A stretch of DNA of 64,000 nt from Sandaracinaceae bacterium (lineage in GTDB: Bacteria > Myxococcota_A > Polyangia > Polyangiales > Sandaracinaceae): the NCBI GenBank assembly GCA_045106715.1, contig JBGCFC010000009.1, positions 192,001 to 256,000 of the forward strand, written 5' to 3'. This document shows positions 5,679-55,608 of this stretch, piece after piece. A model generated the notes under the pieces. That model ran no database searches. It was not told where the DNA came from and worked only from the letters and a program-made list of their open reading frames with translations. Positions within the stretch are counted from its first letter, which is position 1; every line of letters starts with the position of its first letter. The position numbers were made by a program, and so were the translations under genes.

Positions 5679-5713
5679 CGGTCGCGGGTTCCACGCCCTT
5701 GTGACCCGGGCCC

Positions 5714-12759: not shown

Positions 12760-15468
12760 GTGTCCGTCCCGCTTTCGCTGCGCATCCCCAATCCTCCGGC
12801 CGATTTTGTCGGCCGTGACGACCTCCTGGCGCGGGTTTCGAGCGCGCTCCGGGACGGACCGGCGGTGGTGTTGGTGGGGCAGGGGGGGATCGGAAAGACC
12901 GCGCTCGCGCTCTCCGCGGCGAAGACGCTCCCGCCCGGAGGACTCTTCGTGCGCCTCCCAGAGGGGACGCCGGAGCCCTTCGGTCCGCTCCTTCGCGCGC
13001 TCTCCGAGGTGAGCGGCCAGCCTGGCGGGCAAGGCCTCGCGGGGGTGGCGCATCCGGATGAGAAGTTGGCCCGTGCGATCGATCTCGCCGACGCCCTGGT
13101 GCCGCTCTTGGTGGTCGACGATGCGCACGCGTCTGGCGTTCCGGCGCTCTCCCATCTCGTGAACGGCGTCATCGACTACGCGCAGCGCGCCCGCTGGCTG
13201 TTCACCAGCCGAGAGGAACTCCCTCAACTGTCGCCTACGCGCCAGCTGACGGTGGACCGCCTCCCCTCCGAGTCTCTCTCGGACCTGGCTGCGCGCTGGG
13301 CCCCGGAGCTCGAGTCCGCCGAGCGTGCCCGCGCGCTGCGCCGGGCGGAGGGCTCGCCGTTCCGCTTGATGTCCGTGCTGCGCGGCGAGCTCCCGGACCG
13401 CGCCGAAGACCCGGCGGTCGAGGAGGGGCGGCAGCTCTTGGCGTTGCTGCGCCGGCCCGTTCGGGCCGACCAGATCGGTCTCCTCCCCCGCGTGTGGGAG
13501 GCCTTGGAGGAGCGTGGCTTGCTCGTCCGGCGCGGCCCACGGGTCTCGATGCACGATGCCGCGCGACCCCGACATCGGGACTTGGATCTGCTCCGCTCGG
13601 ATGTGGTCTCCCACCTGCTGGAGCGGATCGGAGGCGACCCCGACGCGACGCTCGAGCAGATCCGCCTCCGGCTTCTCCGTGACGAGCCCCACGAGGCCGC
13701 CGCCTGTCTCGAGGCGGAGGGCCCGCGCCTGATCGAAGAGGGTTTCACCCCGGAGCTCGCGACACTCGTGCCGCCCGACGCGGACGGGCCCCTGCAGGGC
13801 TGGGGACTGCGCATCGCAGCCGAGCACGGCGAGGACCTGCACCGGCTCTCGGCGCCGGGGGCGGGCGCCGACTTGGCCACCGAGGCGGCTTGGCTGGAGG
13901 TCCGCTATACGCTCGAAGACCGCGCACCGACGGTCGCCCTTGCAGACGCGGTCGCAGCTCGGGGACGCGCTGAAGGCGCGCTCGAGGTGGCCTGCCGGGC
14001 GGATCTGATCGGCGCGTCGACCGCCATGATGCTCGGCGACTTCGACCGGGCCACCACGATTCTCGCGGCCGCCCGCCCGGTGACACCCGCGCACAGCCTC
14101 CAGGTCACCGCGGTCGAAGCGATGATCGCCGCGCTGCATGGAGACGCCGCCGGAGCCGAGGCGCGCCTGCGCCGGGTCGAGGCCCGGATCGACGAGACGG
14201 CGGGCAACGACCGCGGCTCGCTGCTCTACAACCTCGCGCTTGTGTTTCACATGCTCAAGCGACCGCTGGACGCGGCCCGTCTGCTCGAGCGCGCCATCCC
14301 CGACGACGAGCTCACGACGACGGCGGTGCTCGGGCGCCGCATGCTCGAAATGGACGCCCATCTCGCGGTGCTGGCGGGCAACCTTCCACGCGCCGAGCGG
14401 CGCTTGAAGCGGATGAAGCGCTTCGTGCCGCCGGGCCTACCGACCGATGGACGCGCCACGCTCGTGGCGGCGCACCTCGATCTTCTGAAAGGACGGCTTC
14501 CGCGCGCGAAGCGGCAGCTCGAGCGGGCGCTGGCGGTGGCGGAGGGCTACGGCGGCGTGGAGGACCTCGCGTTTGGGCGGGCCATGCTCGCGCAGCTGTG
14601 TTGGCGAGAAGACCGCCCGCCCGATCCCCTCCCAAAGAGCGCGGGGGTCTCGGCCGCGATCGCCGCTGGCTGGAACGCGTTGGCCGTGCTTTCGCATGAG
14701 GGGAGCGGCCGGATGCCCGACGGTGTGGCGTCCGACGAGCGTGCGGACATCGCGCGCCTGCACAGCGCGATCGAGGCCTGGCTGACCGAGGGCAAAGCCG
14801 CCCGAGCACACGGGTTGCCCGGTCTCGTCGAGCGCGAGACCGCGGCGCCCCATGCTCTGGTTTGGGCGGCTTGGGCGGCGGAAGTACGTATCGCCGCGGG
14901 GGGCGCGTTCGCGGTCGATGGTGCGCTCGCGCTCGCCCGTTCCATGGGCGCGTCCGAGTTCGAGAGCGCGCTCGAGACGCTCGCCCTCGTCGAGGCCGAA
15001 GACGTGGCGGCCGTGATCGCCCACGCGCGGTCCGGGGTGAGCCTCGCTCGCTCCCTGGTGGGCGGCGGCGCCTCCGGCCAGCTGCGGGCCTCGCTGCTCG
15101 CCCGGCTGCGCGCGCACCTCGGCTGGGGTGCCGCGGTCGGCGCTCTCGACCCCAGCGGGCTCGTCGTCGACGAGGGGCGTGGTCGGGTCTACGCGGCCGG
15201 CGGTGAGGTGAGGTTCCGGAGCGGAGCCAAGCCGCTCTCGTTGCTCGGTGCGCTCGCGGCGACCCCAAAGGGCGCCAGCAAAGAGGCGCTCAACCAACGT
15301 GTCTGGGGCACGGAGGAATACCACCCGCTCCGCCACGACAACCGTCTGCGGGTCGCCGCCCGCAAGCTCCGTAAGCGCGTCGAGCCGCTGCTCGAGAGCC
15401 CGCTGCTCGACACGCTCGAGGACGGCTACGTGCTGACGCGGCCTGTCCGGTGGCTCTCGCCCCGCTGA
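12760..15468 (+). CDS. STAND-class P-loop NTPase regulator with C-terminal OmpR/PhoB-type winged-helix DNA-binding domain
   Basis: Walker A GQGGIGKT and hhhhDD Walker B (LLVVDDAH). Long helical/TPR-like middle. C-terminus LNQRVWGTEEY...DNRLRVAARKLRKRV resembles trans_reg_C. Confidence 0.7.
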   Translation: MSVPLSLRIPNPPADFVGRDDLLARVSSALRDGPAVVLVGQGGIGKTALALSAAKTLPPGGLFVRLPEGTPEPFGPLLRALSEVSGQPGGQGLAGVAHPDEKLARAIDLADALVPLLVVDDAHASGVPALSHLVNGVIDYAQRARWLFTSREELPQLSPTRQLTVDRLPSESLSDLAARWAPELESAERARALRRAEGSPFRLMSVLRGELPDRAEDPAVEEGRQLLALLRRPVRADQIGLLPRVWEALEERGLLVRRGPRVSMHDAARPRHRDLDLLRSDVVSHLLERIGGDPDATLEQIRLRLLRDEPHEAAACLEAEGPRLIEEGFTPELATLVPPDADGPLQGWGLRIAAEHGEDLHRLSAPGAGADLATEAAWLEVRYTLEDRAPTVALADAVAARGRAEGALEVACRADLIGASTAMMLGDFDRATTILAAARPVTPAHSLQVTAVEAMIAALHGDAAGAEARLRRVEARIDETAGNDRGSLLYNLALVFHMLKRPLDAARLLERAIPDDELTTTAVLGRRMLEMDAHLAVLAGNLPRAERRLKRMKRFVPPGLPTDGRATLVAAHLDLLKGRLPRAKRQLERALAVAEGYGGVEDLAFGRAMLAQLCWREDRPPDPLPKSAGVSAAIAAGWNALAVLSHEGSGRMPDGVASDERADIARLHSAIEAWLTEGKAARAHGLPGLVERETAAPHALVWAAWAAEVRIAAGGAFAVDGALALARSMGASEFESALETLALVEAEDVAAVIAHARSGVSLARSLVGGGASGQLRASLLARLRAHLGWGAAVGALDPSGLVVDEGRGRVYAAGGEVRFRSGAKPLSLLGALAATPKGASKEALNQRVWGTEEYHPLRHDNRLRVAARKLRKRVEPLLESPLLDTLEDGYVLTRPVRWLSPR

Positions 15469-15472: not shown

Positions 15473-17419
15473 TCACGCCGAAGTGCGGAACGGGCCGGTG
15501 GGCGTGTGCGACGGGCGCTTGGGCTTGCGCGGGTTCTTGCCGAAGCTCGTCGAGATCACCGCGCCGAGACCGGCGAGTGCTGCGCCCGTGACCAACACGG
15601 AGCCGACGAACGGGATGAGACCGACCAAGAACAGCACACCGACACCGACCGCCAGCTGCGCCACGGGTCGCTCCTTGAGACCGGGCAGCGGGAGGACTGT
15701 GCCAAGCCAGTAGGCGCCTGTCCCCCAACCCAGCACATAGCCGCTCGCCAGCAACGCGCCGATCACCATCGCGCCGGGGATGCCGATGATCGTCAGCGTG
15801 AACACGAGCGCGAGGGCGCCGCCGCCCAAGGCTCCGAACAGACCGCCGAACGTGCTCCGCACCGGCCGCGCCGCGAGCTCGTCCCGCAGCGTGGAGAAGC
15901 GGTCGCGGCCCGCGCCGAGCATCAGAAGACCGAACAGGAACAGCAGCGCGTTCCACAGCGCCCAGCGATAGACGCCCGATTCCTCGCCGTCACGGTGGCC
16001 GACATGAACATCCCCAGTGTGGCCGGTGCCCACGATCTGGCCGTACAGCACGGCCGATTCGTGCACTTCGATGCTGCCGCCCATCGCGTTGAGGTCGCCG
16101 TGCACCCGCGCGGCGGGGCCGAGCTCGATGTCGCCGCCCATCGTCGTCACGTTGCCGACCACCTCGCCGTCGACCGAGGCGTCGCCGCCCATCGTGACGA
16201 TGTCGCCGTACGCGTGACCGAGCACCTGCGCATCTCCGCCCATCGTGTAGACGCCGCGCACCCGCTGCTCGCGCCCGACGTCGGCATCATCGCCGAGCGT
16301 GACGAGGTCGTTGAACACGTTGTTCTGCGCGCTCGCCAAGGCCGGCGGCGGGGTCGGGGGCATCGGTGGGATCGGCGGGGGGGCCGGGGCCCACGGGATG
16401 GCGTCAGTCGCGGGCGCGCGCGGCGAGGCCCGGACAGGGGCGCTGGACGGATCCCACGGGATGGTCCGAATCGCGGGCGCTCGCGGCGGAAAGCGGACAG
16501 GGGCGGTCAGGGTCTCCGGCGTCACTGCGTCGGTCGGGGGCTCTTCCGGGACGGTGTCGTCCGCCTGCCCCTGCGACACCGGGTCGGGGCGAATGGTGAG
16601 CAGCGACGCGCCGGGGCGCACCACGACATCGCGCTCGCCCAGCAGCGCCTCGATCACCTCGTCGATGGGCGCGCCAGACAGGTGCATCGTCACCGGTGTG
16701 TCGTCTTCGAGCTCCATCACGACGCCGAGCCCCGCCGAGGCGGCCGCCTGACGCAGCGCCTCGGACGTGGGCTGACGCTCAACCGCGATCTCCACCTGGG
16801 GCATCGGATCGGGCCAGCTTCCGTCGACGCGGTAGGCCTGCGAGACGTTGGGGAGCGCGACGACCATCAACAGCAGCGCTCCCGCCGCACCGGTGACGAG
16901 CGAGCCGCTGCCGTGGCGCAGCAGGAGCCGCGTCGGCACGGCCAAGACCAAGGACGCGATGAGGCCGAGGATGGCCAGCCCGATCCAGCCGCCCGGCAGG
17001 CTCGACTCCACGATGCGGTCGGCGGCACGCGCGAGGGTCAGCACCTGGCTGCCGGCCGTGCCCAGCCCGGAGACCCCCAGCCCGGGGGCGCTCATCACCG
17101 CGAGGCCGGCCGCGAGCAGACCGCCGATCCCCGCGCCCATCCAGAGGCTCCGTCGGCTCGGTGCGGCCGTCGCGAGCGCCGCTTCCGCCGGGGCCAGCTC
17201 CATCGCCCGGGCGATCATCTGGTCGAGATCGTCGATCGGCGGCATGGCCCGCTTGAGCCCGAGCACCGCGTCGGCGGCGCTCTCCACCTCTTCCGCCACC
17301 CGCGCCGCGCAGACCGCGCAGCTGTCCAAATGACCCAGCTGGGCCTCGCTGACGAGCTCCTCTCGCCCGGTGGCGAGCGCCTCCAGCGCCACGACGTCGA
17401 GATGCGGCATCTCGGTCAT
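15473..17419 (-). CDS. zinc-dependent anti-sigma factor (HxxxCxxC) with TM segments, Pro-rich linker and bactofilin-like (polymer-forming) repeat domain
   Basis: The ATG overlaps the sigma stop (ATGA). N-terminus HLDSCAVCAARV. Repeats TMGGDAQVLGHAYGDIVTMGGDASVDGEVVGNVTTMGGDIEL... Multiple TM helices at the C-terminus. Confidence 0.7.
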   Translation of the reverse strand: MTEMPHLDVVALEALATGREELVSEAQLGHLDSCAVCAARVAEEVESAADAVLGLKRAMPPIDDLDQMIARAMELAPAEAALATAAPSRRSLWMGAGIGGLLAAGLAVMSAPGLGVSGLGTAGSQVLTLARAADRIVESSLPGGWIGLAILGLIASLVLAVPTRLLLRHGSGSLVTGAAGALLLMVVALPNVSQAYRVDGSWPDPMPQVEIAVERQPTSEALRQAAASAGLGVVMELEDDTPVTMHLSGAPIDEVIEALLGERDVVVRPGASLLTIRPDPVSQGQADDTVPEEPPTDAVTPETLTAPVRFPPRAPAIRTIPWDPSSAPVRASPRAPATDAIPWAPAPPPIPPMPPTPPPALASAQNNVFNDLVTLGDDADVGREQRVRGVYTMGGDAQVLGHAYGDIVTMGGDASVDGEVVGNVTTMGGDIELGPAARVHGDLNAMGGSIEVHESAVLYGQIVGTGHTGDVHVGHRDGEESGVYRWALWNALLFLFGLLMLGAGRDRFSTLRDELAARPVRSTFGGLFGALGGGALALVFTLTIIGIPGAMVIGALLASGYVLGWGTGAYWLGTVLPLPGLKERPVAQLAVGVGVLFLVGLIPFVGSVLVTGAALAGLGAVISTSFGKNPRKPKRPSHTPTGPFRTSA

Positions 17420-18054
17420 GCCGAGGCCTCGCTGAGCGCCTTGCGCAGGCGCTTCCGCCCCCGATGGAGCCACGTCATCACGGTACCCATGGGCACCTCG
17501 AGAGTGCTCGCGATCTCCTCGTACGTCGAGCCATGCACGTGATAGAGCACGACCGCGAGGCGCATTTTCTCCGGCAAGGTCTCCAGCGCGGCGGACAGAC
17601 GCTCCGTTTCGATGCGCGCAAGGGCGACCCGCTCGGGGGTGGGCGCGTCGCTCGGGACCCACTCGGTCGCCTCGTCGCCGTCGCTGCTGAAGGTGCGTCG
17701 CTCCAGCCCGCGGCGACGCAGGCGGTCGCGGCAGAGATTGCGGGTGACCGTGAGCGCCCAGGTCTTGAAGCTGCCCTTGTCCGGGTCGAATTTGCGGATG
17801 GACGTGACGATCCGCTCCAGCGACTCCTGGGTGGCGTCGTGGGCGTCGTCCCGCCCGGCGACATACCGGCAGACGTCGTGGATGGCGCGCGCGTGCTCCC
17901 GGAGCAACGCCTCGAGGGCGTTCCGGTCACCGTCGCTCGCTCGCTGTTCCAGTGACGCCTCGATGCCGATCCTCCGCTCGACCTGGGCCGTGCCGGCGAC
18001 GGAGTATGCCGGTCCGAGCGGCAGAGAGAGGGAACGAATGAGAGGCATCAGCAT
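17416..18054 (-). CDS. ECF (group IV) sigma-70 factor
   Basis: Sigma-70 region 2 (FKTWALTVTRNLCRDRLRRR) and region 4 (LAVVLYHVHGSTYEEIASTLEVPMGTVMTWLHRGRKRLR). Confidence 0.85.
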   Translation of the reverse strand: MLMPLIRSLSLPLGPAYSVAGTAQVERRIGIEASLEQRASDGDRNALEALLREHARAIHDVCRYVAGRDDAHDATQESLERIVTSIRKFDPDKGSFKTWALTVTRNLCRDRLRRRGLERRTFSSDGDEATEWVPSDAPTPERVALARIETERLSAALETLPEKMRLAVVLYHVHGSTYEEIASTLEVPMGTVMTWLHRGRKRLRKALSEASA

Positions 18055-18084
18055 GCGCGGAGGTCCTTACGGGGCCTCGGGGGC

Positions 18085-18462
18085 GTGTATTTCGCGGCAT
18101 TCCAAGAAAAGTTCGGTCCCGGTCGGATCCCCAGGTTGGACGGTCCGTGCTACGCCCTCCGCGTGGACGAGAACGAGAACGAGATCGAGACCGAAGAGGT
18201 CCCTCCCTATGTGCGATTCCTCGCGGCCGCCATCGAGCGTGCGGTGGCCGACCTCACGACGCGCGAACGGATCGAACTCGAAGAGGAGCACCGCCTCCCG
18301 CTGATCTCGGAGCTGATCGCGAAAGCGGCCCAGGCCGAGACGCCCAAGCGCATGATCAAGGCGGTTGTCCGGGGGCTCGTGAACTCGGAGCACGTCGAGG
18401 AGATCTACGCCTCGGACGACGAACTCAAGGACGCCCTGAAAAAGCACCTCGAAGTGGATTGA
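18085..18462 (+). CDS. hypothetical small acidic protein
   Basis: Protein-like composition (Lys/Glu-rich, few Arg), unlike the antisense ORF. Start uncertain. Confidence 0.4.
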   Translation: MYFAAFQEKFGPGRIPRLDGPCYALRVDENENEIETEEVPPYVRFLAAAIERAVADLTTRERIELEEEHRLPLISELIAKAAQAETPKRMIKAVVRGLVNSEHVEEIYASDDELKDALKKHLEVD

Positions 18463-18489
18463 CGCGCTGGGTTCGGCAATCCGCGTCGG

Positions 18490-19245
18490 TCAGCTCGTCG
18501 AGCAAGTGCCGGAGGTAGGCATCCCGCACGTCTCCGTGCACTCACTGCACCCGAAGCTGGCGCCGGTGAAACATCGGGTGCCGCCCATCGCCCGCGGCAC
18601 ACAGATGCCTTGGCCGCCGGTCTCGCAGCTGCCACCTGCGCACTGCTCGGGCATTCCGTCGGGGGTGCCGGGGCAGTCGGCGTCTTCGTAGCAGCACCGT
18701 GGGGAAGGGGAGGGGCTGAGCTCGCAGCTGCCCGCGCCGGCGTCGAGCGGTGGCTCCGTCGGGGATGGGAGGGCGCGCGTCCAGCGGCGGGGCTCCGTCG
18801 GGCATCGGCGGAGGTGCGCCATCTCGGGGCGGGGCTCCGTCGGGCATTCCTGCGTCGGACCCGGCATCCAAGGATGCGTCCATGCTGGGCGGTCCGTCGG
18901 CTGAGGTCGCCCAATCGCAGCTGAAGCCATCGTCGCTGGCGAAGGCGCGGCTCGTCACCAGGACGGACCCCGAGGCGGGCACACCACATCGACGCCGGGG
19001 CACCGGGTCTCCGGAGTGGCGTCGTCGTTTCTCGCGATCGCCGTGCTCGTGTCGCAGCTCGACTGTGTTCCGTCGCAGATCTCGAGCACCGGATCGCCAG
19101 AGCACGCGCCCAGGTCTTCGGATGCCGCGCACGCCACCCGCAAGGTCTCGCCGGGGGTGCAGTCCACGACTTCGTCCTCACGGTGCGTGCCGGAGCAGCC
19201 GACCGAGAAGACCAGAACCAGCGACAGGAGGGCGTAAAAAGGCAT
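18490..19245 (-). pseudogene. Cys-rich secreted lipoprotein, apparently disrupted by two frameshifts (or sequencing indels)
   Basis: Lipobox N-terminus MPFYALLSLVLVFSVGCSG plus a Cys-rich segment in one frame, ending at TGA 18955-18957. The D/A/G/P-rich linker (SRAFASDDGFSCDW...MPDGAPPLDA) is only coding-like in a second frame. The Cys-rich C-terminal domain (CCYEDADCPG...CSECTETCG) is back in the first frame. The alternative frames at each segment are R-rich. Confidence 0.4.
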
Positions 19246-19391
19246 CCCCTGAGCCCTAGCACGCACCGCTCCCCAGAGGGTTTCCGGGTGGGATACTCTC
19301 CCCGCGGCAGACAAGCGCCAAGGTGCGGGCGCCTGACGAGGTCGTAGCGGGCGCGCGGGGATCGCGCCGCGCAGACGGACGGGGAACTCGG

Positions 19392-22300
19392 ATGAGATCA
19401 CGCGTGAGGGGAAGCTGGGCGCTCGGGGCCGTCCTGACGGGGGCGGTGCTGGCCGCGTGCGGCGGGGGGGTCGAGGAGGTCGACGACACCGTCGCCACCA
19501 TCACGCCCATCCGTGGCCGGGCTGAGATCGGTGAGACGACTGCCGCCGTGGTCGCGCGCGCGACATCCGGGGAGACCGTGCGGACCGACGCCGAAGGGCT
19601 GTCCCGTTTGGTGCTCGACCCCGGACCGCACCTCCTGCTTGACCACAACACCGCTGTGGAGCTCGGCGGGAGCGGCTCCGTCATGCTCAGCGAGGGGCGC
19701 GTGTTCGTGGAGGTCGACGCGGGCGAGTCGCTCTCGCTTTCGAGCGCGGGCGGCTCGGTGCGGGCGTCCGGAGCCGCATTCGACGTGCGGCGCGAGGCGG
19801 ACAGCACCGTGTACTACGTGGTCCGCGGCGAGGTCAGCTACACGCATGTCGCCAGCGGGACGCGCGGGATCCTCGGCGCGGGGCAGCGGCTCGAGTTGGG
19901 GGAAGAGCCCGCGATCACGCCTGCCACGCTCTGGCGGGACTGGACCGGCGGCTTGGCCCGTCCAGGACCCGGAGGGGACGGTGGTCCGGCTGGCGTCGGC
20001 GCGCTCGAGGCGCGGGTTCCCGGGGAGACCGGACAGGCGCGGTGGCCGCTCGTCATCCGGCGGCTCGACGTACGCGTGAGCATCGATCGCGACCTGGCGA
20101 TCACCGAGGTCGACCAGGTCTTCTTCAATCCGGCCAGCGAGACGGTCGAGGGGCTCTACCGGATCCGCGTGCCCGAGGGTGCGGTGCTCCAGCGCTTCGC
20201 TGTCGATCGCGCTGATCGCATGGTCGATGGCTACGTACGGGAGCGCGCCATGGCCCGCGCCGCCTACGACCGACAGGTCTACCGAGGCTCCACCGAGGAC
20301 CCCGCCCTGCTGGAGTGGGACGCCCCTGGTCGCTACCGCGCGCGCATCTACCCGATCGGCGCCGGCGAGACGCGTCGGATCGTCATCCGGTACGCCGAGT
20401 GGCTTCGCCCCCCCGCGGGCGGCGAGGCGCGGATGTACCGTTACCCGATGGGCGGTGGGGCGCGCGCGCCTCACATCCAGGAGCTGTCTCTGAGTGTCGA
20501 TGTCGAGGCCTCGGGCGCCCAGCGCGTGCGGGCGGGCATGGGCGCGCTCGTCGAAGAGGGCGCGGTGCGCATCCGGCGGAGCGACTTCCGCCCCCGCGCC
20601 GACTTCTGGTTGGAGCTGGTCGGCACCGACGCCCAGCAAGCGCGCGCCTGGACCGCGCCCCACCGTCCTCCCCCACGCGCGCCCGACGCCGCGGAGGTGC
20701 CCAACGAGGCCGACGAGCGCGACTACTTCTACCTCCCGCTCATCTTGCCCACGACGCTGGCGGACGACGCGACGGATGAGCCGCTCGACCTGGTGATCTT
20801 GGCGGACGTCTCGGCCGGGACGGACCGCTCGCATCTCGAGCTCGGCCGTTCGGTGGTCGAGTCGATCGCCGCGCACCTCGACGAAGAGGACCGCGTGACC
20901 GTGGTGAGCGCGGACCTGACGATCCGGAGCGTCATCGAAGGCGAAGAGGCGGCGCTCGGCGCGGCGACGGCGGGCCGCGTGGAGGCGTTGCTCGACGGGC
21001 TGGCGAGGGTGCCGGCCGGGGGCGCGACGGACCTCGGTCAGGCGATCGCGGCGGCGGCCGAGACGCTGGACCCGACGCGCCGCGGTGCGGTGGTCTATGT
21101 CGGTGACGGGACCCCCACGGTGGGTGAGCTGCGGGCCGAGGGCTTGCTCGAGGCGCTCGGCCGCTTGCCCGATCCGGTCCGGCTGTACGCGGTGGCGGTA
21201 GGCAGCGAGGCCAACCTGGGCTTGCTCGAGACCGTCACCCGTGGGGGCGGTTTGGCGCTCCGCGTGGAGGAGCGGGCCGAGGCGGCGGACGCAGCGATGG
21301 CGGTGCTCGCGCACGTGGAGCGACCGGTGGCGCATCAGGTCACGGTGGCGCTCGGTGACGGGCTCGACAACGCGTTCCCGCGGCGTCCGATGGACGCGGT
21401 GCTGGGCGACGTGTTCCCCGTCGTAGCGCGGGTGCGCGGCGAGGTCCCGACCGAGGTCACGGTCCGGGGCATGGTCCGCGGCACGCCGTTCGAGGAGGTC
21501 ATCGCGCTCGAGTCGCAGACGACCAACGAGACCACTGACCTGCGGCTCCGCTGGGCAGGCGAGCGGCTCCGGCAGCTCCTCCTGGAGGGCGCGGGCCGCG
21601 AAGAGGTGGCCGAGCTGGGCACGCGCTACGGGCTGATTACCCCGTTCACGAGTTACTACGTGCCGAGCCGCAGCGAGCTCGAGCGCATGGGCCCGACCGC
21701 GCTCAACCTGATCGACCAGCCGGACATCCGGGTGGGTATGCAGCGACGCGTCCAGCCGAGCTCCATCGCGGCGGCGGTCTTGATGGCGCCGCTGAGCTTG
21801 GCGGGGTGCAGCTACGAAGCCGGCAGCTCGGCGGAGAGTGAAGCCCCCGAGTGGCTCGACGAGTCCGTCGTCGCAGGCGACCGGAACGAGGGCGCGATGG
21901 GCGAAGACGACAGCCGGCGGTCGAACAACCGCTACGGCATCGAGGGCCCAGGCGAGCCAGAGCCCGAGGAGGAGTCGGAAGCGGCTCCGGATCCGGCCAT
22001 GGTCGGGCAGCTCGGCGCGCTCGGCTACGCAGCGCCGACAACACCCGCGGCCGCAGCTGAGACGGGCGAGGCGGGGCCCATGGACGCGTTGACCGGGGCC
22101 GAAATCGGGGAGAACTCCGGCTTCGGCGGACTCGGCCTGCGCGGCACCGGGCGCGGCGGGGGCGGCACCGGGGAAGGCACCATCGGCCTTGGCAACCTGG
22201 GCACCATCGGGCACGGCGCCGGCGGCGGCTCGCAGCGCGCCCGGGCAGACAGCAACAGCGCCTTCGGAGACTCCGAAGACAACGACCAAGCGGCCAGTAC

Positions 22301-24128
22301 AGGCTCGGGGTACGGACGCGGAGCGGGCGGCCTGCAGGGTCGGAGCGCGGCGATCCCGCGCATTCGCACCGGGACCGCGGAGGTGCGCGGCAGCCTCGCT
22401 CGCGAGGTCATCCGGCGGGTGATCCGCCGGCACATCAACGAGGTCCGGTTCTGCTACGAGCAGGAGCTCAACGCGCGACCGGACCTCACAGGCAGGGTGT
22501 CCGTCCGATTCACCATCGGCCCGACGGGCGCGGTGCAGGACTCCTCGGTGAGCAGCTCGACGCTCAGCAACGCACGGGTCGAGCAGTGCATCGCGCAGGC
22601 GTTGCGCCGCTGGCGCTTCCCCGCGCCGCCCGGTGGTGGGGTCGTCGTGGTGACGTATCCGTTCGTGTTGTCGTCCGCAGGCGGCAGCGGCGCGCGCTCG
22701 GCTCCGACGCCACCGTCTCCGACACCCCCGACGCAGCCGACGGTCGTGACGACGGTCGTGACGCGCACGGGATCGCGCGACGGACACGCGCGCCGCCAGT
22801 GCAGCGACGCGGCGTACCTCCCGCTCTCCGACCGCGAGTCGCTCTGGACGGAGCGTCTCGGAGCCGAGAACAACGCGGCCGCGTGGGTGCGGCTCTACCG
22901 CGACGCCATCCGCGCGTGCGAAGCCCGCACGTGGCGGGATCGCCGCGCGTTCCTGGGACGCATCCTCGGCCGTGCCGGAGGGGTCGAATCCATGACCCAG
23001 GTGCACCGGCTGATGCAGAACCCGGCGGAGCGCACGTTCCTCCGCGGACGGATCCTTCGGCGGGTCCGCACCCCTGAGCAGCTGCGCACGGTGCGCGCGG
23101 CTTTCGGGCTCGGGACCGGTGTCGACTGGGAGCTCGTCGCGCAGATCCTCGACCGGGCCCGCACCGACGCGGCGAAGGTCCGCGCGCTGCGTCGCCTCAC
23201 CATGCAGCACCCCGACAGCTTCGAGCTCAAGCTCCGCCTGCTGGGCATCCTCGAGCGCACGGGCAACACCGCGGAAGCCAAGCGACTCGCGGATCGCATG
23301 CGGGCAGACCCGCTCGCCGACCCGGGCGTGCGCACCGCGATCGGCGAGATGTACCTTCGGCTGAACCGCGAAGACGAGGCCCGGCGCGTGTTCAGCGAGA
23401 TCGTGGAGTTCGCCCCGCTCGACGAGCTGGCGCGTCGCCGCCTCGGGGACCTCTACCGTGCACACGGCTGGTACGAAGACGCCTATCGGCAATACCTCAC
23501 GTTGGCCGAGATTCGCCCCGACGACCCGACGGTGCTCTTGCTGCAGGCGCAGGCCGCGGCGGGAGCGGGGCGGGTCGACGAGGCGCTTCGCCTCGAGCGT
23601 CGCCTCATGCAGACGGCGCAGCCGGGCGCGGCCGTCGGGGTGGCCCGGAGTGCGCTGCTCTGGTCTTCGGTACGTTATGCGCGGCTCAAGCAGGCAGCCC
23701 GGGAGAGCGGTGACGACGCACGCCTCGAGGCCTTGTCGCGGCGGATGCGGCGGAGCGGACTGCTCCGGGAGTCCGGCGCGCTGCGGATCACGCTCGTGTG
23801 GTCGCATCCGGACGCGCAGCTCGCGTTGTTCGCAGCCCACCCCGGCCTCGCCCTGACGCGCCCGCCGGATCTGTCTCCCGAGCTCGGCCTCGAGGCGTTC
23901 CATCTCGAGGAGCAAGAGGCGGGCACCTACCAGTTCGAGGTGCGTCAGATGCGCGCCGAGGACGACCTGACCGAGGTGGACGCGCAGCTCGTCGTCGTCT
24001 GGAACGAAGGCGAATCCGACGAGCGCGTTGAGCTCGTGGACCTCCGCTTCGACCCCGAACACACCAGTTACACCTGGGACCTCACCGGCACGACCCTCGA
24101 TTCGACGACCCCGGGAGGGGCACAGTGA
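19392..24128 (+). CDS. giant lipoprotein: FecR-like domain, VIT domain, vWA domain, Gly-rich linker, AgmX/PglI-type TonB-C-like domain, C-terminal TPR repeats
   Basis: Lipobox LAACGGG. FecR-like strand pattern. VIT-like WPLVIRRLDVRVSIDRDLAITEVDQVFFN. vWA LVILADVS...YVGDGTPT. TonB_C-like RGSLAREVIRRVIRRHINEVRFCYEQEL...VTYPFVL. TPR-like C-terminus. Antisense ORF rejected. Confidence 0.8.
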   Translation: MRSRVRGSWALGAVLTGAVLAACGGGVEEVDDTVATITPIRGRAEIGETTAAVVARATSGETVRTDAEGLSRLVLDPGPHLLLDHNTAVELGGSGSVMLSEGRVFVEVDAGESLSLSSAGGSVRASGAAFDVRREADSTVYYVVRGEVSYTHVASGTRGILGAGQRLELGEEPAITPATLWRDWTGGLARPGPGGDGGPAGVGALEARVPGETGQARWPLVIRRLDVRVSIDRDLAITEVDQVFFNPASETVEGLYRIRVPEGAVLQRFAVDRADRMVDGYVRERAMARAAYDRQVYRGSTEDPALLEWDAPGRYRARIYPIGAGETRRIVIRYAEWLRPPAGGEARMYRYPMGGGARAPHIQELSLSVDVEASGAQRVRAGMGALVEEGAVRIRRSDFRPRADFWLELVGTDAQQARAWTAPHRPPPRAPDAAEVPNEADERDYFYLPLILPTTLADDATDEPLDLVILADVSAGTDRSHLELGRSVVESIAAHLDEEDRVTVVSADLTIRSVIEGEEAALGAATAGRVEALLDGLARVPAGGATDLGQAIAAAAETLDPTRRGAVVYVGDGTPTVGELRAEGLLEALGRLPDPVRLYAVAVGSEANLGLLETVTRGGGLALRVEERAEAADAAMAVLAHVERPVAHQVTVALGDGLDNAFPRRPMDAVLGDVFPVVARVRGEVPTEVTVRGMVRGTPFEEVIALESQTTNETTDLRLRWAGERLRQLLLEGAGREEVAELGTRYGLITPFTSYYVPSRSELERMGPTALNLIDQPDIRVGMQRRVQPSSIAAAVLMAPLSLAGCSYEAGSSAESEAPEWLDESVVAGDRNEGAMGEDDSRRSNNRYGIEGPGEPEPEEESEAAPDPAMVGQLGALGYAAPTTPAAAAETGEAGPMDALTGAEIGENSGFGGLGLRGTGRGGGGTGEGTIGLGNLGTIGHGAGGGSQRARADSNSAFGDSEDNDQAASTGSGYGRGAGGLQGRSAAIPRIRTGTAEVRGSLAREVIRRVIRRHINEVRFCYEQELNARPDLTGRVSVRFTIGPTGAVQDSSVSSSTLSNARVEQCIAQALRRWRFPAPPGGGVVVVTYPFVLSSAGGSGARSAPTPPSPTPPTQPTVVTTVVTRTGSRDGHARRQCSDAAYLPLSDRESLWTERLGAENNAAAWVRLYRDAIRACEARTWRDRRAFLGRILGRAGGVESMTQVHRLMQNPAERTFLRGRILRRVRTPEQLRTVRAAFGLGTGVDWELVAQILDRARTDAAKVRALRRLTMQHPDSFELKLRLLGILERTGNTAEAKRLADRMRADPLADPGVRTAIGEMYLRLNREDEARRVFSEIVEFAPLDELARRRLGDLYRAHGWYEDAYRQYLTLAEIRPDDPTVLLLQAQAAAGAGRVDEALRLERRLMQTAQPGAAVGVARSALLWSSVRYARLKQAARESGDDARLEALSRRMRRSGLLRESGALRITLVWSHPDAQLALFAAHPGLALTRPPDLSPELGLEAFHLEEQEAGTYQFEVRQMRAEDDLTEVDAQLVVVWNEGESDERVELVDLRFDPEHTSYTWDLTGTTLDSTTPGGAQ

Positions 24129-27100
24129 ACCACCTCAAGACCACGCTGATCCTGTGCCTGTTGACCGCCCTCGCCGGCTGCGGTTCGGACCACGACCCCT
24201 CTCCCACCGTGGCCACCGCCGAGGTCATCCGCGGCGGGTTCACTGTCGAAGTCGGCGACGACGCCACCCAGGTCATCGCCACCGCGCGTGTCGAGAACGA
24301 GGCCGAAGTGGCGACCGCGGACGACGGACGCGGGGTCGTGCAGCTCGACTCGGGCGCGTGGATCCTCTTCGACCGCGGGACCACAGGAAGCGTCCGGCTC
24401 GCCGAGCTGACGCTCGGTTCAGGGCGCGTCTGGGTCGACGCCTCGAGCGCCGAGGAGACGACCATCACGACGAGCCACGGCTCGGTCAGCGCGGCCAATG
24501 CGACGTTCGCCGTCGAGCTGGTGGACGGCGCAGCGTCCGTGTACTGCGGCTCGGGCGAGGTGACCTTCCGCAGCGAGGGCGGCTCCGATCGCCTCGCGCA
24601 GGGGGAGCGTGTGCGGTTGGCCGGGTCCACCGCGCCGGACGTCGAGCCGGCCGATCTGTGGGACGACTGGACAGGAGGTTTGGCCGACCCGGGCCGCTCC
24701 CGTGCGCGCCGCGCGACATATCTCGGCGTGCTCGCCGGGCGCCGCACCGACCAGATGGGCGAGGCGCGCACGCCGCTGCCGATCCGAAACCACGAGGTCA
24801 ACGTCACCGTGCACGGAGACCTGGCGGTCACCGAGGTCACGCAGACCTTCTTCAACGCGCGCAGCGACACGCTCGAAGGCGAGTGGTCGATCCGTCTCCC
24901 GCGCGGCGCCATCGTGCAGGGCTTCGCGCTCGATCAGGGCGGCGGGTTCGTGGACGGGGTCGTCAACGCGACGAGCGTCGGCGACGGCTACCAGCTCTCT
25001 TGGATGGGCGTGAACACCAACGGCGCCCGCCTCACGTACGACGGCCCCGACCGCCTGCGGGCGCGTGTGTTCCCGGTCAGCCCCGGCGGAACCGTGCGCG
25101 TGCGACTTCGCTACACCGAGTGGCTCGACCGGCGAGACGACAGTCGGACGTATGTCTATCCGATGCGCGTGGAGGCCGAGCCGCCGCTTCTCGGCGAGTT
25201 CATCCTGACGGTCAACACGTCCGGCAGCGCCATCGGCGGGATGCGCGCCGGCATGGGCGCCACGACCGAGGACGGCCAGGTCGTGCTTCGCCGCAGCGAC
25301 TTTCGGCCGCGCGCCGACTTCTACCTCGATCTCTTCGACGAGGAGGCGCCCCCGAACGATGTGGTCCAGGCGTACGTGATCAGCGCGCCCAACGAGAGCG
25401 GGCCCGGGGCGGCCGAGGGCTCGGAGAGTTACGTGCTGTTCGACTTGCCGACGGAGTCGTTGGTCGAAGACGAAGGCGACGGGACACCGCCGCTCGAGCT
25501 GGTGTTGCTGCTGGACGTCTCGGGCGAGACCGACCCGGAGGACCTCGAGATCGCGCGCGCCGTGATCGAGGCGGTGCTCCGGCAGGTCACACCCACCGAC
25601 CGGGTGGCGATCCGGCTGGCGGACGTGCACGCCTACGCGCCTGAAGGCGCCCCCGAGGGTCTGGTCGAGGCGACCGAGGAGAACCGCGAGGCGCTGCTCG
25701 AGTCGATCGCACGCGTGCATCTCGGCGGCGCGACGGATCTCGGCCGCAGCCTCCGCGAGGCGGGCCAGCTCGTGGCGGGACGTCCGCGTGCGGCGGTCCT
25801 GTACCTCGGCGACGGACTGCCGACGACGGGTGACCTCGACGCGACCGCGCTGCGCGCCACGCTCGCGACGCTGGACGCGCCGCCGCGCTACTTCGGCCTG
25901 GCGGTGGGCGACGGATCCAACGAGGGCCTGCTCAAGCGCCTCTTCGACGGGGAAGCGCAGACGGTGAGCGAGCGCACGGAGGCCGCCCGCGCGGTCATGC
26001 ATGTCTTGGCGGAGGCGGCCGAGCCCACTCTGCGGGGGGTCGAAGTGGACCTCGGCGAGAACGTCGAGCGCATCTACCCACGCCCACCGATCCTCGTGCA
26101 GAACGGCGCGCACCTCAGGCTGGTGGGCCGGTTGGTCGGGGAGCTCCCGACGACGGTCACGCTCCGCGGGGTGCACGACGGTGAGGCGTTCGAAGAAGAG
26201 CTCACGGTCAACCGAGGCAGCGTGCAGGACAACGGAGACATCCGGCGCCGTTGGGCGGTGAACCGGCTCGCCGAGCTGATCGACGAGGACGCGGGCCGCG
26301 AAGCGATGGTCGACCTCGGGCTGCGCTTCTCGCTCGTCTCGCCCTGGACGTCACTCGTCGTCGGCGGCATGCAGGGGGGCTCGATCGCGCCCGTCACGGG
26401 CTTCGACCACGACCCGCTCGGGATCGCCTGGGGCGTGGGCGGCGGCAATCCGACGGTGGCGGCGAGCACGTTCACGGACGACGTCTCCGGCTGGCGTCGA
26501 CGACTGCGTCGCCAGCGGCCCGAACCGGCCATCGCCCCCGAGACCACCTGGGTCTCGCGGGTGAGCGCCGAGGACCCGCCGGCCTCGCGTGAGTCGGGCT
26601 TCGGTTCGGACGGCGGCCTCGCGCGCGCGGCCGTCACCCGTGCGCTTCGGGAGGGTGAGCGAGGACCGCGTGGCTGCTACGAGCGGCGCTCCATCGTGCG
26701 CCCCGACCTGGCAGGCAACATGACCATCGAGGTGGAGGTCGGCGGCGACGGCGCGCCTCGCGGGGTGAACATCGTGTCGTCCTCGCTCGGCGACGATGAC
26801 GTCTCCCGCTGCGTGCAGACGGAAATCCGCGGCCTACGCTTCCCGAGCACCGGCGGTGGCAGCACCGTCACGGTGACCCACACGCTCGACTTCCAGATGC
26901 CCGAGCGTGAGTTCGGCACGCGCCGGCAGTGCTCGGAGGCGTCCCGGCAGGGCCTCGAGGTGCGCCGCGGGCTTTGGTCCGAGCGGCTCGCCCAGAACCC
27001 GGGCGTCGGCGGTGCGCTGACGGTGTGGCGCGGCGCGCGCAACCAGTGCGAGCTGTCGAACTGGCGGGCCCGACGCACGCTGCTGCACATGATGCTGTCG

Positions 27101-28267
27101 CACTCCGGCGGTGTCCGGGGGGGCGTTGCGCTCTACCGCGCCTTCAGTGGTTCCGCGTCCATCGCGAGCTACCTCCGCCGCATCATCCTCCGCCGTGTGC
27201 GCAGCCCTGCCGACGTGACCGCGGTGCGCGCAGGCCTCGGCCTCGACGTGCCCGTCGACTGGAGCCTGTTCTCCCGACTCTGGAAGAACAACGACGACGC
27301 CGAGTACCGCCTCGCGCTCGTCCGGCGCTGGCTCGAGGTCGTGCCCGAGGAGATGGACCTCCGTCTGCGTCTGCTGTCCCTCCTCGAGGAGACCGACAAC
27401 CTCCCCGAAGCGCGGCGGCTCGCCCGGGAGTTGCGCGCCGAGCCGCTGGCCGACGCGCGTGTGCGCACGGCGGTCGGCGAGTTCTGGCTCCGGCAGGAGA
27501 ACATCACCGAAGCGCGCCGCGTGTTCAGCGAGCTGGTCGAGCGCACCCCGCTCGATCCATGGGCACGTCGTCGGCTCGGCGACCTCTACCGCGCGCACGG
27601 CTGGTCTGACGATGCGTACCGCGAGTACCGGACGTTGGCGCGCCTTCGGCCGGGCGACGGTGGCGTGTTGCTTCTGTTGGCGCGAGCGGCGGCCGACGCG
27701 GAGCGGGTCGACGAGGCCCTGCGCCTCGAACAGCGCCTGAGCGAGTCCACCGACCCGGGTGTGCACGAGGGCGTCGCGGGCTACGCACGGCTGTGGACGA
27801 CGGTTCGCCTCGCTCGCCTCAAGCTCGACGACCCAGACGGGGACATGCTGGCGGCCATCCGTCGGCGCGAGCGGGAGTCCGGCGCGTTGCGCGACCCGCC
27901 CGCCGTGTTCGCGGCGCTCACCTGGCGGCACCCCGATGACTACCCGGAGATCGTCGTCCGCTATCCGAGCACCGACGAGGACATCGGCTGGGAGCCCGTG
28001 GAGCTGGGCGGCCGTGACCACGGGATCTTCGCCGTGCGCATCCGGGAGCGCGAGGAAGGCGAGACGCTGTTCGAGGTTCGCCGGCTGGAGCGCGACGAGC
28101 TGCGCGACCTCGAGTGTGAGCTGCTCGTCATCACCGGCCTCGGCACCCCCGAGGAGAGCATCGAGCGCTTCCCGCTGACGTTGACGCGCGACCAAGTGCG
28201 GCGCCGTTTCCAGCTCGGGGACGGCATCGAAGAGGTGAGCATCCCCGCCAGTGAACGCGGCCTCTGA
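24125..28267 (+). CDS. paralogous giant lipoprotein (FecR-like, VIT, vWA, TonB-C-like, TPR)
   Basis: The GTG start overlaps the upstream stop (GTGA). Lipobox LTALAGCGS. Same domain order and recognisable identity to the preceding gene, e.g. LPIRNHEVNVTVHGDLAVTEVTQTFFN and RRLGDLYRAHGW. Confidence 0.8.
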   Translation: MNHLKTTLILCLLTALAGCGSDHDPSPTVATAEVIRGGFTVEVGDDATQVIATARVENEAEVATADDGRGVVQLDSGAWILFDRGTTGSVRLAELTLGSGRVWVDASSAEETTITTSHGSVSAANATFAVELVDGAASVYCGSGEVTFRSEGGSDRLAQGERVRLAGSTAPDVEPADLWDDWTGGLADPGRSRARRATYLGVLAGRRTDQMGEARTPLPIRNHEVNVTVHGDLAVTEVTQTFFNARSDTLEGEWSIRLPRGAIVQGFALDQGGGFVDGVVNATSVGDGYQLSWMGVNTNGARLTYDGPDRLRARVFPVSPGGTVRVRLRYTEWLDRRDDSRTYVYPMRVEAEPPLLGEFILTVNTSGSAIGGMRAGMGATTEDGQVVLRRSDFRPRADFYLDLFDEEAPPNDVVQAYVISAPNESGPGAAEGSESYVLFDLPTESLVEDEGDGTPPLELVLLLDVSGETDPEDLEIARAVIEAVLRQVTPTDRVAIRLADVHAYAPEGAPEGLVEATEENREALLESIARVHLGGATDLGRSLREAGQLVAGRPRAAVLYLGDGLPTTGDLDATALRATLATLDAPPRYFGLAVGDGSNEGLLKRLFDGEAQTVSERTEAARAVMHVLAEAAEPTLRGVEVDLGENVERIYPRPPILVQNGAHLRLVGRLVGELPTTVTLRGVHDGEAFEEELTVNRGSVQDNGDIRRRWAVNRLAELIDEDAGREAMVDLGLRFSLVSPWTSLVVGGMQGGSIAPVTGFDHDPLGIAWGVGGGNPTVAASTFTDDVSGWRRRLRRQRPEPAIAPETTWVSRVSAEDPPASRESGFGSDGGLARAAVTRALREGERGPRGCYERRSIVRPDLAGNMTIEVEVGGDGAPRGVNIVSSSLGDDDVSRCVQTEIRGLRFPSTGGGSTVTVTHTLDFQMPEREFGTRRQCSEASRQGLEVRRGLWSERLAQNPGVGGALTVWRGARNQCELSNWRARRTLLHMMLSHSGGVRGGVALYRAFSGSASIASYLRRIILRRVRSPADVTAVRAGLGLDVPVDWSLFSRLWKNNDDAEYRLALVRRWLEVVPEEMDLRLRLLSLLEETDNLPEARRLARELRAEPLADARVRTAVGEFWLRQENITEARRVFSELVERTPLDPWARRRLGDLYRAHGWSDDAYREYRTLARLRPGDGGVLLLLARAAADAERVDEALRLEQRLSESTDPGVHEGVAGYARLWTTVRLARLKLDDPDGDMLAAIRRRERESGALRDPPAVFAALTWRHPDDYPEIVVRYPSTDEDIGWEPVELGGRDHGIFAVRIREREEGETLFEVRRLERDELRDLECELLVITGLGTPEESIERFPLTLTRDQVRRRFQLGDGIEEVSIPASERGL

Positions 28268-28986: not shown

Positions 28987-29032
28987 GTGATGTTTCCCAT
29001 CGTTGGCGGTCTCAATCAGCGCGAACGGACTC

Positions 29033-29758: not shown

Positions 29759-29841
29759 CTGTTCTCTTTCGGGAGGGCGCAGACATCCGCCGCCGATCCA
29801 AGCGAGAGCGTCGTTCCGCAACCTGCTAAGGTCAGCCGACC

Positions 29842-30891: not shown

Positions 30892-31152
30892 GCCGATCCC
30901 CGCGTGACCACTTCGCCCAGCGCGCGTACCTGAATCGATGGCCGGCGCGGTGCACCTTTTCACATGAACGGGATCGGATCCGCCGGATGGCTTGGCGGTC
31001 CATGGGGCTGACGCTAGGGTAGGGCGAGGGGAACGAACGACTCGATGCACGTCGCTGATGCGAGCCACTCCACGCACGGAGCGTGGGCTGGGCAGGCCGC
31101 CGGAACACGGAACGGGCGCACACGTCCGCTTTGCCGGTCGTGGATCGTCCTG

Positions 31153-35682: not shown

Positions 35683-35717
35683 ACCGCTGAAACGTCTCTC
35701 CGTGATGTTCGCCCTCG

Positions 35718-44938: not shown

Positions 44939-45051
44939 GACAGAGCAGGGCTACTCCGCCGCCCGGCCGGGTTCAAGTATCACCGATGGATCGTCAGCAA
45001 CCTGCCTTGCGCCGGGGGTTGGGATACCCTGTGGCGCCAGGAGGTCTCGCG

Positions 45052-54450: not shown

Positions 54451-54452
54451 GG

Positions 54453-55568: not shown

Positions 55569-55608
55569 CCCTGGAGTCTACCAGGGCCCGGCGCGCCTCG
55601 CCGGTCTG

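Follow-up and report, generated by a model that had tools for sequence, protein, structure and literature searches.

We analyzed a 64,000-nucleotide stretch of genomic DNA from a Sandaracinaceae bacterium (contig JBGCFC010000009.1, positions 192,001 to 256,000, referred to below as the window), in which two consecutive genes, here named G1 and G2, encode giant lipoproteins of 1,578 and 1,380 aa, and an operon for an extracytoplasmic function (ECF) sigma factor and a putative anti-sigma factor lies nearby on the opposite strand. Since its G+C content is about 70%, gene finding relied on codon-position GC (GC3) beside open reading frames (ORFs). Both lines of evidence confirmed the two giant genes, and the proteins proved to be paralogous, as the original prediction had stated: 755 aa on the N-terminal side align at 38% identity and 553 aa on the C-terminal side at 39%. 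Alignments indicate that G1 contains a close paralogue of the complete periplasmic arm of the gliding protein GltG, placed behind a FecR/CJM-like domain and an inter-alpha-trypsin inhibitor heavy chain (ITIH)-like head. The features of the locus are collected in Table 1; G1 residue numbers follow the query at window positions 19389-24128, in which the codon before the ATG at 19392 is counted so that Met1 is residue 2, and anti-sigma residue numbers start from the ATG at 17419.

Translational coupling of the two genes is evident by direct reading of the sequence, with the TGA of G1 and the GTG of G2 overlapping as GTGA (cagTGAacc) and a Shine-Dalgarno-like run, GGGAGGGG, located 4-11 nt 5' of the G2 GTG. 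Neither sigma-70-type promoters nor intrinsic terminators were detected around G1 or beyond the end of G2. A Sandaracinaceae metagenome-assembled genome (MAG) encodes, on a 355-kb contig, a protein with 100% identity to G1 (P0001), and an exact look-up of the G2 sequence returned no matching record. In both proteins the signal peptide is followed by a lipobox (LAAC in G1 and LAGC in G2), and a lipobox-like N terminus was recognized by a simple pattern in 95 of 120 homologues. The mature N termini would begin with CGGGVEE and CGSDHDP. In Myxococcus xanthus, Lys at position +2 signals inner-membrane retention and Ala at position +7 signals targeting to the matrix (PMC3222651); both giants lack both signals, and under this rule, carried over to Polyangia, they are predicted to be anchored in the outer membrane. 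The lipoboxes, together with invariant Cys pairs, support a periplasmic or extracytoplasmic location of the proteins, their lipidation being a prediction.

Table 1. Features of the sigma/anti-sigma and G1-G2 locus, in window coordinates
Feature	Coordinates	Strand	Basis or remark
STAND-like AAA/TPR/winged-helix regulator	12760-15468	+	Neighbor of anti-sigma gene
Putative anti-sigma factor, 648 aa, DUF8173 family	15473-17419	-	ORF and ATGA overlap with sigma gene
STN-like (secretin/TonB N terminus) domain of anti-sigma factor	16586-16801	-	PF07660
ECF (group 4) sigma factor, 212 aa	17416-18054	-	Sigma70_r2, r4_2, TIGR02937
Promoter-like motif GAAAT-N17-CGTA, candidate autoregulated ECF promoter	18068-18093	-	Upstream of sigma gene
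Acidic 125-aa ORF	18085-18462	+	Strong GC3 signal
Disrupted Cys-rich lipoprotein gene	18490-19245	-	Signal peptide and lipobox VGCSG
Conserved leader (GATACTCTC ... CCAAGGT ... GGTCGTAGC)	19292-19348	+	5' of G1
G1, giant lipoprotein, 1,578 aa	19392-24128	+	ORF and GC3
G1 FecR/CJM-like beta-solenoid	19479-19922	+	PF04773, Foldseek
G1 ITIH-heavy-chain-like module: VIT, beta-sandwich, vWA, C-terminal helical/beta part	20001-21713	+	VIT profile, model
G1 internal signal-peptide-like hydrophobic stretch, lipobox-like LAGC at end	21756-21809 (residues 790-807)	+	
G1 GltG-like periplasmic arm	21813-22685	+	Alignment, NF033760, NF033768
TonB-CTD-like domain inside G1 arm	22398-22670	+	
G1 TPR superhelix, invariant Cys pair (RRQCSDA...C) ahead	22803-23771	+	
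G1 C-terminal beta-sandwich	23781-24107	+	Confident strands in model
Shine-Dalgarno-like GGGAGGGG and GTGA stop/start overlap, G1/G2	24114-24128	+	Direct sequence reading
G2, giant lipoprotein, 1,380 aa	24125-28267	+	ORF, domain profiles
G2 FecR-like domain	24299-24562	+	
G2 VIT domain	24785-25114	+	
G2 vWA domain (DVSGET)	about 25490-25954	+	
G2 divergent TonB_C domain	26624-26893	+	Helical/TPR part, then beta-sandwich thereafter
268-aa gene (d268)	in block 28288-33701	-	Convergent with G2

Profile searches and a confident structural model support the domain order proposed for the giants, i.e., FecR/CJM-like, VIT-vWA, TonB-C of the AgmX/PglI type, and TPR. The FecR family (PF04773) scored 33.8 bits in G1 and 24.0 bits in G2 (cut-off, 24), and VIT scored 69.8 and 43.0 bits in the same order, while vWA was sub-threshold by Pfam (22.4 bits versus a cut-off of 23.8). 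Both proteins passed the cut-off of 40 bits of NF033768, the model of the AgmX/PglI C-terminal domain (115.7 bits in G1 and 56.9 bits in G2); TonB_C (PF03544) was found in G1 only (26.2 bits), whose TonB C-terminal domain (CTD)-like domain was also matched by TonB chains of the PDB at an E value of 1e-4. Both proteins also contain TPRs. From a 97-sequence alignment, AlphaFold modeled residues 20-775 of G1 with a pLDDT of 92.6 and a pTM of 0.91. When this model was searched with Foldseek, residues ~205-775 matched ITIH1 (6fpy; E value of 1e-26 over ~600 columns), and the N-terminal beta-domain matched the PupR CCSSD (6ovk_R; 7e-8) and BDI_1681, a putative anti-sigma factor (4m0n; 2e-6). Owing to the matches with ITIH1 and the PupR CCSSD, the vWA and FecR-fold assignments hold, and the FecR-like fold that had been claimed for the N-terminal domain is thus real.

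The VIT-vWA part, as modeled in G1, is a complete ITIH-heavy-chain-like module. Its metal ion-dependent adhesion site (MIDAS)-like site in G1 reads D473-V-S-A-G-T ... GGAT-D ... G-D572-G; four of the five canonical MIDAS residues (D, S, T, and D) are kept, invariant or nearly so across the family, and metal binding is putative. The CJM-like domain begins ~10 aa past the lipidated Cys. The G1 model contains no STN unit (beta-alpha-beta-beta-alpha-beta), and the giants lack a cytoplasmic anti-sigma domain and a transmembrane helix N-terminal of the CJM. In a second AlphaFold model, covering G1 residues 800-1578, residues 800-986 are disordered and residues 989-1097 form a confident TonB-CTD-like domain (beta-alpha-beta), followed by a short disordered linker, a TPR superhelix at 1139-1461 with the invariant Cys pair ahead of it, and a C-terminal beta-sandwich at 1465-1573. 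A structure search with this half returned TPR structures only, the beta-sandwich having no separate match.

The likeness of G1 to GltG extends far beyond the TonB-CTD-like domain. At 31 loci (L050-L080), retrieved with a match to G1 residues 982-1113 only (64-74% identity), the genes encode FHA-FHA-transmembrane helix-linker-TonB_C proteins that the NCBIfam GltG model matches over their full length with 422-454 bits, under its cut-off of 650 bits; at one of them, from Sandaracinaceae (L054), the gene order is gltC-like, a 1,367-aa TPR protein, gltE-like, cglF/gltF-like, gltG-like, and a giant TPR protein. In an unmasked local alignment, G1 residues ~809-1099 and the entire part of one GltG-like protein (L068) after the transmembrane helix were 65% identical over 267 aligned residues, and the TonB_C domain alone was 72% identical. 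Motifs common to both include PEWL, NRYGIEGP, IGENxGFGGLGLRGTGRGGGGTGEGTIGLGNLGTIGHG, GYGRGAGG, and VRGSL..EVIRRVIRRHINEVRFCYEQELN. The GltG equivalog model NF033760 scored 185 bits in G1 against its cut-off of 650, with the match confined to the periplasmic arm. The TonB_C domain of G2 was only 28% identical to that of GltG, and in a rough neighbor-joining tree of the domain (103 columns) the G1-type domains grouped or interleaved with GltG, with the G2-type domains far off. Altogether, the alignments indicate that G1 ~809-1099 is a close paralogue of the complete GltG periplasmic arm and not of the end domain alone. The AgmX/PglI-type TonB_C label in the original prediction stands for both proteins by profile score but understates the full arm present in G1. 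Immediately ahead of the arm, exactly at the position of the GltG transmembrane helix, lies the internal hydrophobic stretch of G1 with its LAGC, which 106 of 120 G1-type homologues share and G2 lacks; this stretch may be the relic of a gene fusion or a working membrane-dipping or processing site.

At least 712 homologues were found, nearly all in Sandaracinaceae and other Myxococcota and bearing generic names. The C-terminal module, searched among 1.84 billion proteins, had 176 representatives (clusters at 50% identity) at an E value of ≤1e-30, nearly always at the end of 1,300-1,600-aa proteins, and is confined to the giant architecture. In a species-level genome collection, 25 loci from Sandaracinaceae and Polyangiaceae, the latter at ~40% identity, have a G2-type gene directly after a G1-type gene, and four more such loci were added by further look-ups (L081, L082, L086, and L091). 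The cultured species Sandaracinus amylolyticus carries an abutting pair of 1,582 and 1,374 aa. The G2 clade is monophyletic, its TonB_C domain is always present, and a G1-type gene always lies ahead; single G1-type genes occur too, with Enhygromyxa having single copies devoid of the TonB_C domain. These sequence comparisons argue that the G1-G2 tandem is old, and the tandem pair of the original prediction is thus conserved as a pair across loci. All G2-containing loci, it should be said, were found with G1-derived or close-relative queries, and a metagenome scan with G2 gave three close loci only. In the literature searched, no description of the giant architecture was found.

Genes next to the pair differ from clade to clade, such as Ser/Thr kinase and PilY1/PilX-like genes in one and SlyD, a cytochrome c peroxidase-like gene, and a sigma-54 activator in another. 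In one clade (L009, L028, L031, and L042), the giant pair is flanked on both sides by Ser/Thr kinase genes, with a conserved HEAT-repeat protein, small lipoproteins, and a DctP-like protein encoded upstream; PilY1-like and PilX-like genes come after the pair in L009, L031, and L042. Two assignments were rejected, i.e., a Bat/MoxR-type vWA-TPR operon, since MoxR, DUF58, and BatA-D are absent from the neighborhoods of all clustered loci, and the "Ca-activated chloride channel" of the JGI name, which mirrors the vWA COG only, as a membrane domain is absent.

We also examined the sigma/anti-sigma operon. The 212-aa sigma factor was confirmed by Sigma70_r2 (64.5 bits), r4_2 (60.4 bits), and TIGR02937 (114.9 bits; cut-off, 42.9); it consists of sigma-70 regions 2 and 4 only and belongs to the ECF group 4 class. 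The original prediction placed the giants immediately downstream of this pair and of the Cys-rich lipoprotein gene, but the operon is transcribed away from them and two genes lie in between. The start of the anti-sigma gene overlaps the sigma stop as ATGA, and the order sigma to anti-sigma is kept in every locus examined. The anti-sigma protein combines an HxxxCxxC motif, three hydrophobic segments, a periplasmic STN-like domain, a Pro-rich linker, a bactofilin-like beta-helix (a weak match of 18.4 bits), and a multi-transmembrane tail; its family of 33 homologues, called DUF8173 in newer Pfam, is without a FecR/CJM domain. No Pfam anti-sigma model (zf-HC2, RsrA-type) matched it even at an E value of ≤5, and its designation as a putative anti-sigma factor comes from its position, the HxxxCxxC motif (HLDSCAVC in the window copy, with H, C, and C nearly invariant in 31 homologues), and the transmembrane segments. 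A conserved STN-like segment of ~70 residues follows the three hydrophobic segments, starting ~12 aa past the third. PF07660 (STN) matched 16 of 31 family members at an E value of ≤0.01, with the best score of 30.1 bits in P0252 (cut-off, 28.4) and a sub-threshold 15.6 bits in the window copy, and the best PDB match of the family profile was the PilQ N0 domain (4ar0), which has the STN fold (E value of 0.029). No TonB-dependent receptor gene was present among the window ORFs scanned, and no ExbBD/TolQR-type motor genes in the window parts scanned.

By tblastn and by phmmer with GC3-filtered ORFs, an ECF sigma gene was found near the giants in 4 of 80 genome loci (L002, L003, L010, and L011), and further look-ups added L081, L082, L086/L087, and L091, so that the sigma gene and the giants adjoin in all 9 loci of the clade of the window. 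The sigma gene and G1 are directly divergent, 190-330 bp apart, in L002, L003, L010, L081, L086, and L091, and 1-7 kb is inserted between them in the window, L011, and L082. The 268-aa gene d268 adjoins the anti-sigma gene in L003, L010, L081, and L086, followed in L003 and L010 by APP1, p461, and p458, but is found on the far side of G2 in the window; because of this difference in the d268 flank, the segment from anti-sigma through sigma and G1 to G2 has been inverted as a unit. No such ECF sigma was found in the 7-10 kb ahead of the giants at 16 further pair loci, or within about this distance of them in S. amylolyticus. Conversely, orthologous sigma (72-79% identity) and anti-sigma (44-46%) operons at L088-L090, and a more distant one at L084, have no giants nearby in the available flanks and retain the d268/APP1 or radical-SAM context. 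Since the sigma gene is missing from these 16 loci and orthologous sigma operons are found apart from giants, the adjacency is a lineage-specific juxtaposition that has been maintained since. The signalling idea of the original prediction had been made dependent on synteny of the sigma pair with the giants in relatives, and this result goes largely against it.

Giant-free sigma/DUF8173 operons have an RCC1/WD40-like beta-propeller gene nearby (L088, 277-1701; L089, 3168-4667; L084, 1621-2808). It is directly divergent from the sigma gene in L088; in L089 it is found upstream of the anti-sigma gene, one gene away, with a tblastn sigma match in between.

The promoter-like motif upstream of the sigma gene, GAAAT-N17-CGTA(GG), has a single exact match in the 64-kb window, and GAAAT-N17-CGTA occurs at the same position 5' of the sigma gene in L002, L003, L010, L011, L081, L086, and L091, with an unconserved spacer and with two copies in L081 and L086. 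As it is found upstream of the sigma gene only, a promoter motif common to the sigma gene and G1 was rejected. A different ECF-type motif, G[GA]AAC-N17-GTC[GA]G, again with an unconserved spacer, is located just 5' of the G1 leader in L002, L003, L010, L081, and L086. The form G[GA]AAC-N17-GTC fits sigma-dependent expression of the giants in these relatives, the motif leaving the acting sigma factor unspecified. The leader itself could be aligned in all 8 clade loci, with the consensus TAC.CTC / CCAAG[CG]T / GGTCG[GT]AGC in the window, L003, L011, L081, L082, L086, and L091, and GGTCGGAGCAG was found upstream of G1 in the sigma-linked clade only.

Between the sigma gene and G1, the 125-aa ORF and the Cys-rich lipoprotein gene constitute a window-specific insertion of ~1.3 kb, whose breakpoint falls at the -10 element of the G1-proximal ECF-type motif. 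The 125-aa ORF, left unmentioned in the original prediction, has no Pfam or NCBIfam match and no counterpart in related loci, and its annotated start overlaps the promoter-like motif of the sigma gene. The Cys-rich gene is disrupted, as had been noted from the sequence: it contains an in-frame TGA at 18955-18957 and changes frame twice by GC3 phase, with the middle section (~18770-18950), a DAG/PDGAPP-rich linker, coding in another frame and the C-terminal part back in the first. It is a pseudogene or carries a pair of assembly indels. On the far side of G2, the block at 28288-33701 contains d268, an APP1-like phosphatidate phosphatase gene (29842-30891), and two paralogous genes in tandem, p461 and p458 (461 and 458 aa), which overlap and belong to no Pfam family; in relatives, this block accompanies the sigma/anti-sigma operon, not the giants. 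A radical-SAM/SPASM gene lies near the sigma module at 11429-12709 (+), and a 48% identical counterpart is found at 7073-8359 of L084, beside the distant sigma/DUF8173 operon of another Sandaracinaceae MAG. The STAND/AAA-TPR regulator at 12760-15468 was rejected as a member of the module, as its counterpart is absent from every related locus. Elsewhere in the window are SpoVR and DUF444 genes (a YeaH-like pair), a UvrD-type helicase gene, and three Ser/Thr protein kinase genes, none of them gliding-related (52912-55577 [-], 42920-44950 [-], 5705-7663, 35706-36692, and 44929-46812).

Compared to known systems, the giants share single parts with several. GltG (PglI), the inner-membrane component of the M. 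xanthus Agl-Glt machine with a paralogue in Nfs, is matched by G1 over its complete periplasmic part at 65-72% identity, but the giants are lipid-anchored, are devoid of FHA domains and of a transmembrane helix, and do not lie in a glt cluster; G1 moreover has 780 aa of FecR-like and ITIH-like modules before the arm and TPR and beta-sandwich parts after it. With neither FHA domains nor a transmembrane helix, the giants therefore have no route to the AglRQS motor. In the comparison with ITIH1 (6fpy) and bacterial VIT-vWA surface proteins (those targeted by sortase, PEP-CTERM, and XrtN systems), there is superposition over the VIT, vWA, and C-terminal regions and the D, S, T, and D of the MIDAS are kept, whereas sequence identity is ~15% and the fifth MIDAS residue is replaced; the giants lack a C-terminal sorting signal and embed the module in a much larger lipoprotein. 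FecR and PupR share the CJM (Pfam FecR) fold, and an ECF sigma operon adjoins the giants in the clade of the window, but the giants are without the anti-sigma domain, transmembrane helix, and STN of those proteins, the STN-like domain being on a separate, putatively ZAS-type anti-sigma factor with no TonB-dependent transducer. The M. xanthus gliding adhesins CglB and CglD, which are outer membrane lipoproteins, share with the giants a vWA head and occurrence in Glt-encoding myxobacteria, an analogy only; CglB has none of the VIT, TonB_C, and TPR parts. TonB and TolA have in common with G1 the fold of the C-terminal domain and a long disordered linker ahead of it; in the giants, however, the domain is internal rather than C-terminal, and there is no N-terminal transmembrane helix for ExbBD/TolQR coupling. 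The designation of the giants as TonB or GltG orthologues was rejected in view of the missing transmembrane helix and FHA domain and the score under the cut-off.

The reading we favor, tentatively and at somewhat below an even chance, is that G1 and G2 are co-translated envelope lipoproteins, most likely a heteromeric scaffold or adhesin pair docking on Glt-type TPR scaffolds, and neither sigma regulators nor TonB-like energy transducers, with ECF control confined to one lineage. Each protein would be lipid-anchored, in the outer membrane by the M. xanthus sorting rule, with the FecR/CJM-like beta-solenoid following at once and then the ITIH-like VIT-vWA head; the disordered linker leads to the TonB-CTD-like docking domain, the TPR superhelix with its Cys pair, and the beta-sandwich. 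In the M. xanthus machine as modeled with AlphaFold, residues 428-543 of GltG wrap the TPR protein GltD and the GltG TonB-CTD sits on GltD and strand-pairs with GltF, and GltG residues 371-494 are long enough to span the peptidoglycan (PMC11761067). Because the GltG arm has these contacts in the published model, the probable dock of G1 is a GltD/GltF-type TPR scaffold within a trans-envelope machine of the Glt/Nfs type, if by analogy the G1 arm is used as the GltG arm is; the TPR domains of G1 or G2 would be an alternative dock. Such docking would tether the vWA ligand-binding head to the machine, with G2, in which the TonB-C domain is always kept, as the obligate partner of G1. In the lineage of the window, the giant operon would have come to lie divergently from the operon of the ECF sigma and the putative ZAS-STN anti-sigma factor; the ECF sigma factor probably controls giant operon transcription in the relatives, and in the window the 1.3-kb insertion would have removed the ECF-type promoter motif of the giants. 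This control, possibly with feedback, would thus be a lineage-specific addition to the pair.

Several observations weigh against docking as a Glt-type pair. The TonB_C domain is missing in 74 of 120 G1-type relatives, in which the low-complexity linker remains, and an NRYGIEGP-like motif is kept in 20-29 of 120 only, so the GltG-like arm is not essential to the family. The contacts of GltG with GltD and GltF are themselves AlphaFold predictions, the TPR domain of the giants is not specifically similar to the GltC, GltD, or GltE models, and wrapping of the GltG-like linker on the TPR of G1 itself was rejected, as the AlphaFold monomer leaves residues 800-986 disordered. Among the neighborhoods of the clustered loci, no giant gene lies inside a glt cluster, and neighborhood clustering gave clade-specific sets only, with no conserved partner gene beyond the pair. 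The second Ser of the MIDAS is replaced by Ala or Gly in G1-type proteins (DxSA[AG]T in 119 of 120) and by Glu in G2, and, since the loci came from G1-derived queries, the claim that G2 never occurs alone is biased.

Some of these points favor a generic tether or adhesin of the envelope that is unconnected with the gliding machinery, in which the TonB-C domains bind peptidoglycan or an outer membrane protein, the vWA heads bind a ligand of the envelope or from outside, and the likeness to GltG reflects nothing more than domain shuffling or gene conversion. Most G1-type relatives do without the TonB_C domain, the giant genes were not found inside any glt cluster, VIT-vWA is common sortase/PEP-CTERM cargo (weak matches to TIGR03788, TIGR04477, and TIGR02921), and the interleaving of G1 and GltG domains in the tree is compatible with recombination. 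Yet the 65% identity extends across the whole arm of ~290 residues, low-complexity linker motifs included, far above the 38% between G1 and G2, and therefore indicates shared constraint or a shared partner; we consider the generic tether a possible but rather unlikely explanation. We hold a comparable degree of doubt about the view that the giants are nothing but an output of the ECF sigma factor, which would switch on the divergent G1-G2 operon as envelope-remodelling cargo with no return signal. The directly divergent arrangement with 190-330 bp between the genes in six loci, the ECF-type motif 5' of the G1 leader in five of those six, and the RCC1-like propeller gene in the divergent position in sister lineages are consistent with it. 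Against it, most of the family is expressed with no such sigma gene nearby, and the G1-proximal motif is unlike the candidate autoregulatory GAAAT-N17-CGTA and missing from the window, L011, and L091, which also counts against the favored docking reading.

The remaining alternative develops the suggestion of the original prediction that FecR-like lipoproteins feed the ECF pathway, as split cell-surface signalling in which the CJM of G1, G2, or both complements the STN of the anti-sigma factor in trans, restoring a periplasmic sensor of the FecR/PupR type, and ligand or load on the giants releases the sigma factor. Its strongest point is that the giants have the CJM-like fold without an STN and the anti-sigma family has an STN-like domain without a CJM, since in PupR the CJM and STN subdomains pack together and both are required for partner binding (PMC7186176); in addition, the sigma pair and the giants adjoin in the 9 clade loci and stayed together through the inversion. 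However, the adjacency is lineage-specific, being absent in the 16 other pair loci and S. amylolyticus, and the available flanks of orthologous sigma/anti-sigma operons contain no giants, the giants bear no anti-sigma domain, the STN match of the window copy is itself sub-threshold, and no TonB-dependent transducer is found at the locus. The geometry is also unfavorable: the CJM lies ~10 aa and the STN ~12 aa from their own anchors, which would be in opposite membranes as the giants lack the +2 Lys, and this makes it doubtful that the two domains touch each other directly. We regard split signalling as unlikely. A reversed device, in which the CJM is on giants coupled to the gliding-type machine via the GltG arm and vWA head, the STN is on the anti-sigma factor, and engagement of the giants would be reported to the ECF sigma factor with no TonB-dependent transducer, is, as one joint proposal, decidedly improbable. 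Altogether, the observations of the original prediction on the giants are confirmed, and its interpretation is only partly supported.

Current annotation of the giant family goes no further than the names "TonB family," "VIT domain-containing," and "Ca-activated chloride channel family." If the arm of G1 docks as that of GltG does, Polyangia would gain a motor-independent, lipid-anchored plug for an integrin/ITIH-like head in a gliding- or sporulation-type machine, and the repertoire of bacterial focal-adhesion components would be widened beyond Myxococcus. The giant pair is testable, as it is present in the cultured S. amylolyticus, and STN-only DUF8173 anti-sigma factors beside CJM-only lipoproteins would provide a concrete test of FecR sensor halves acting in trans.

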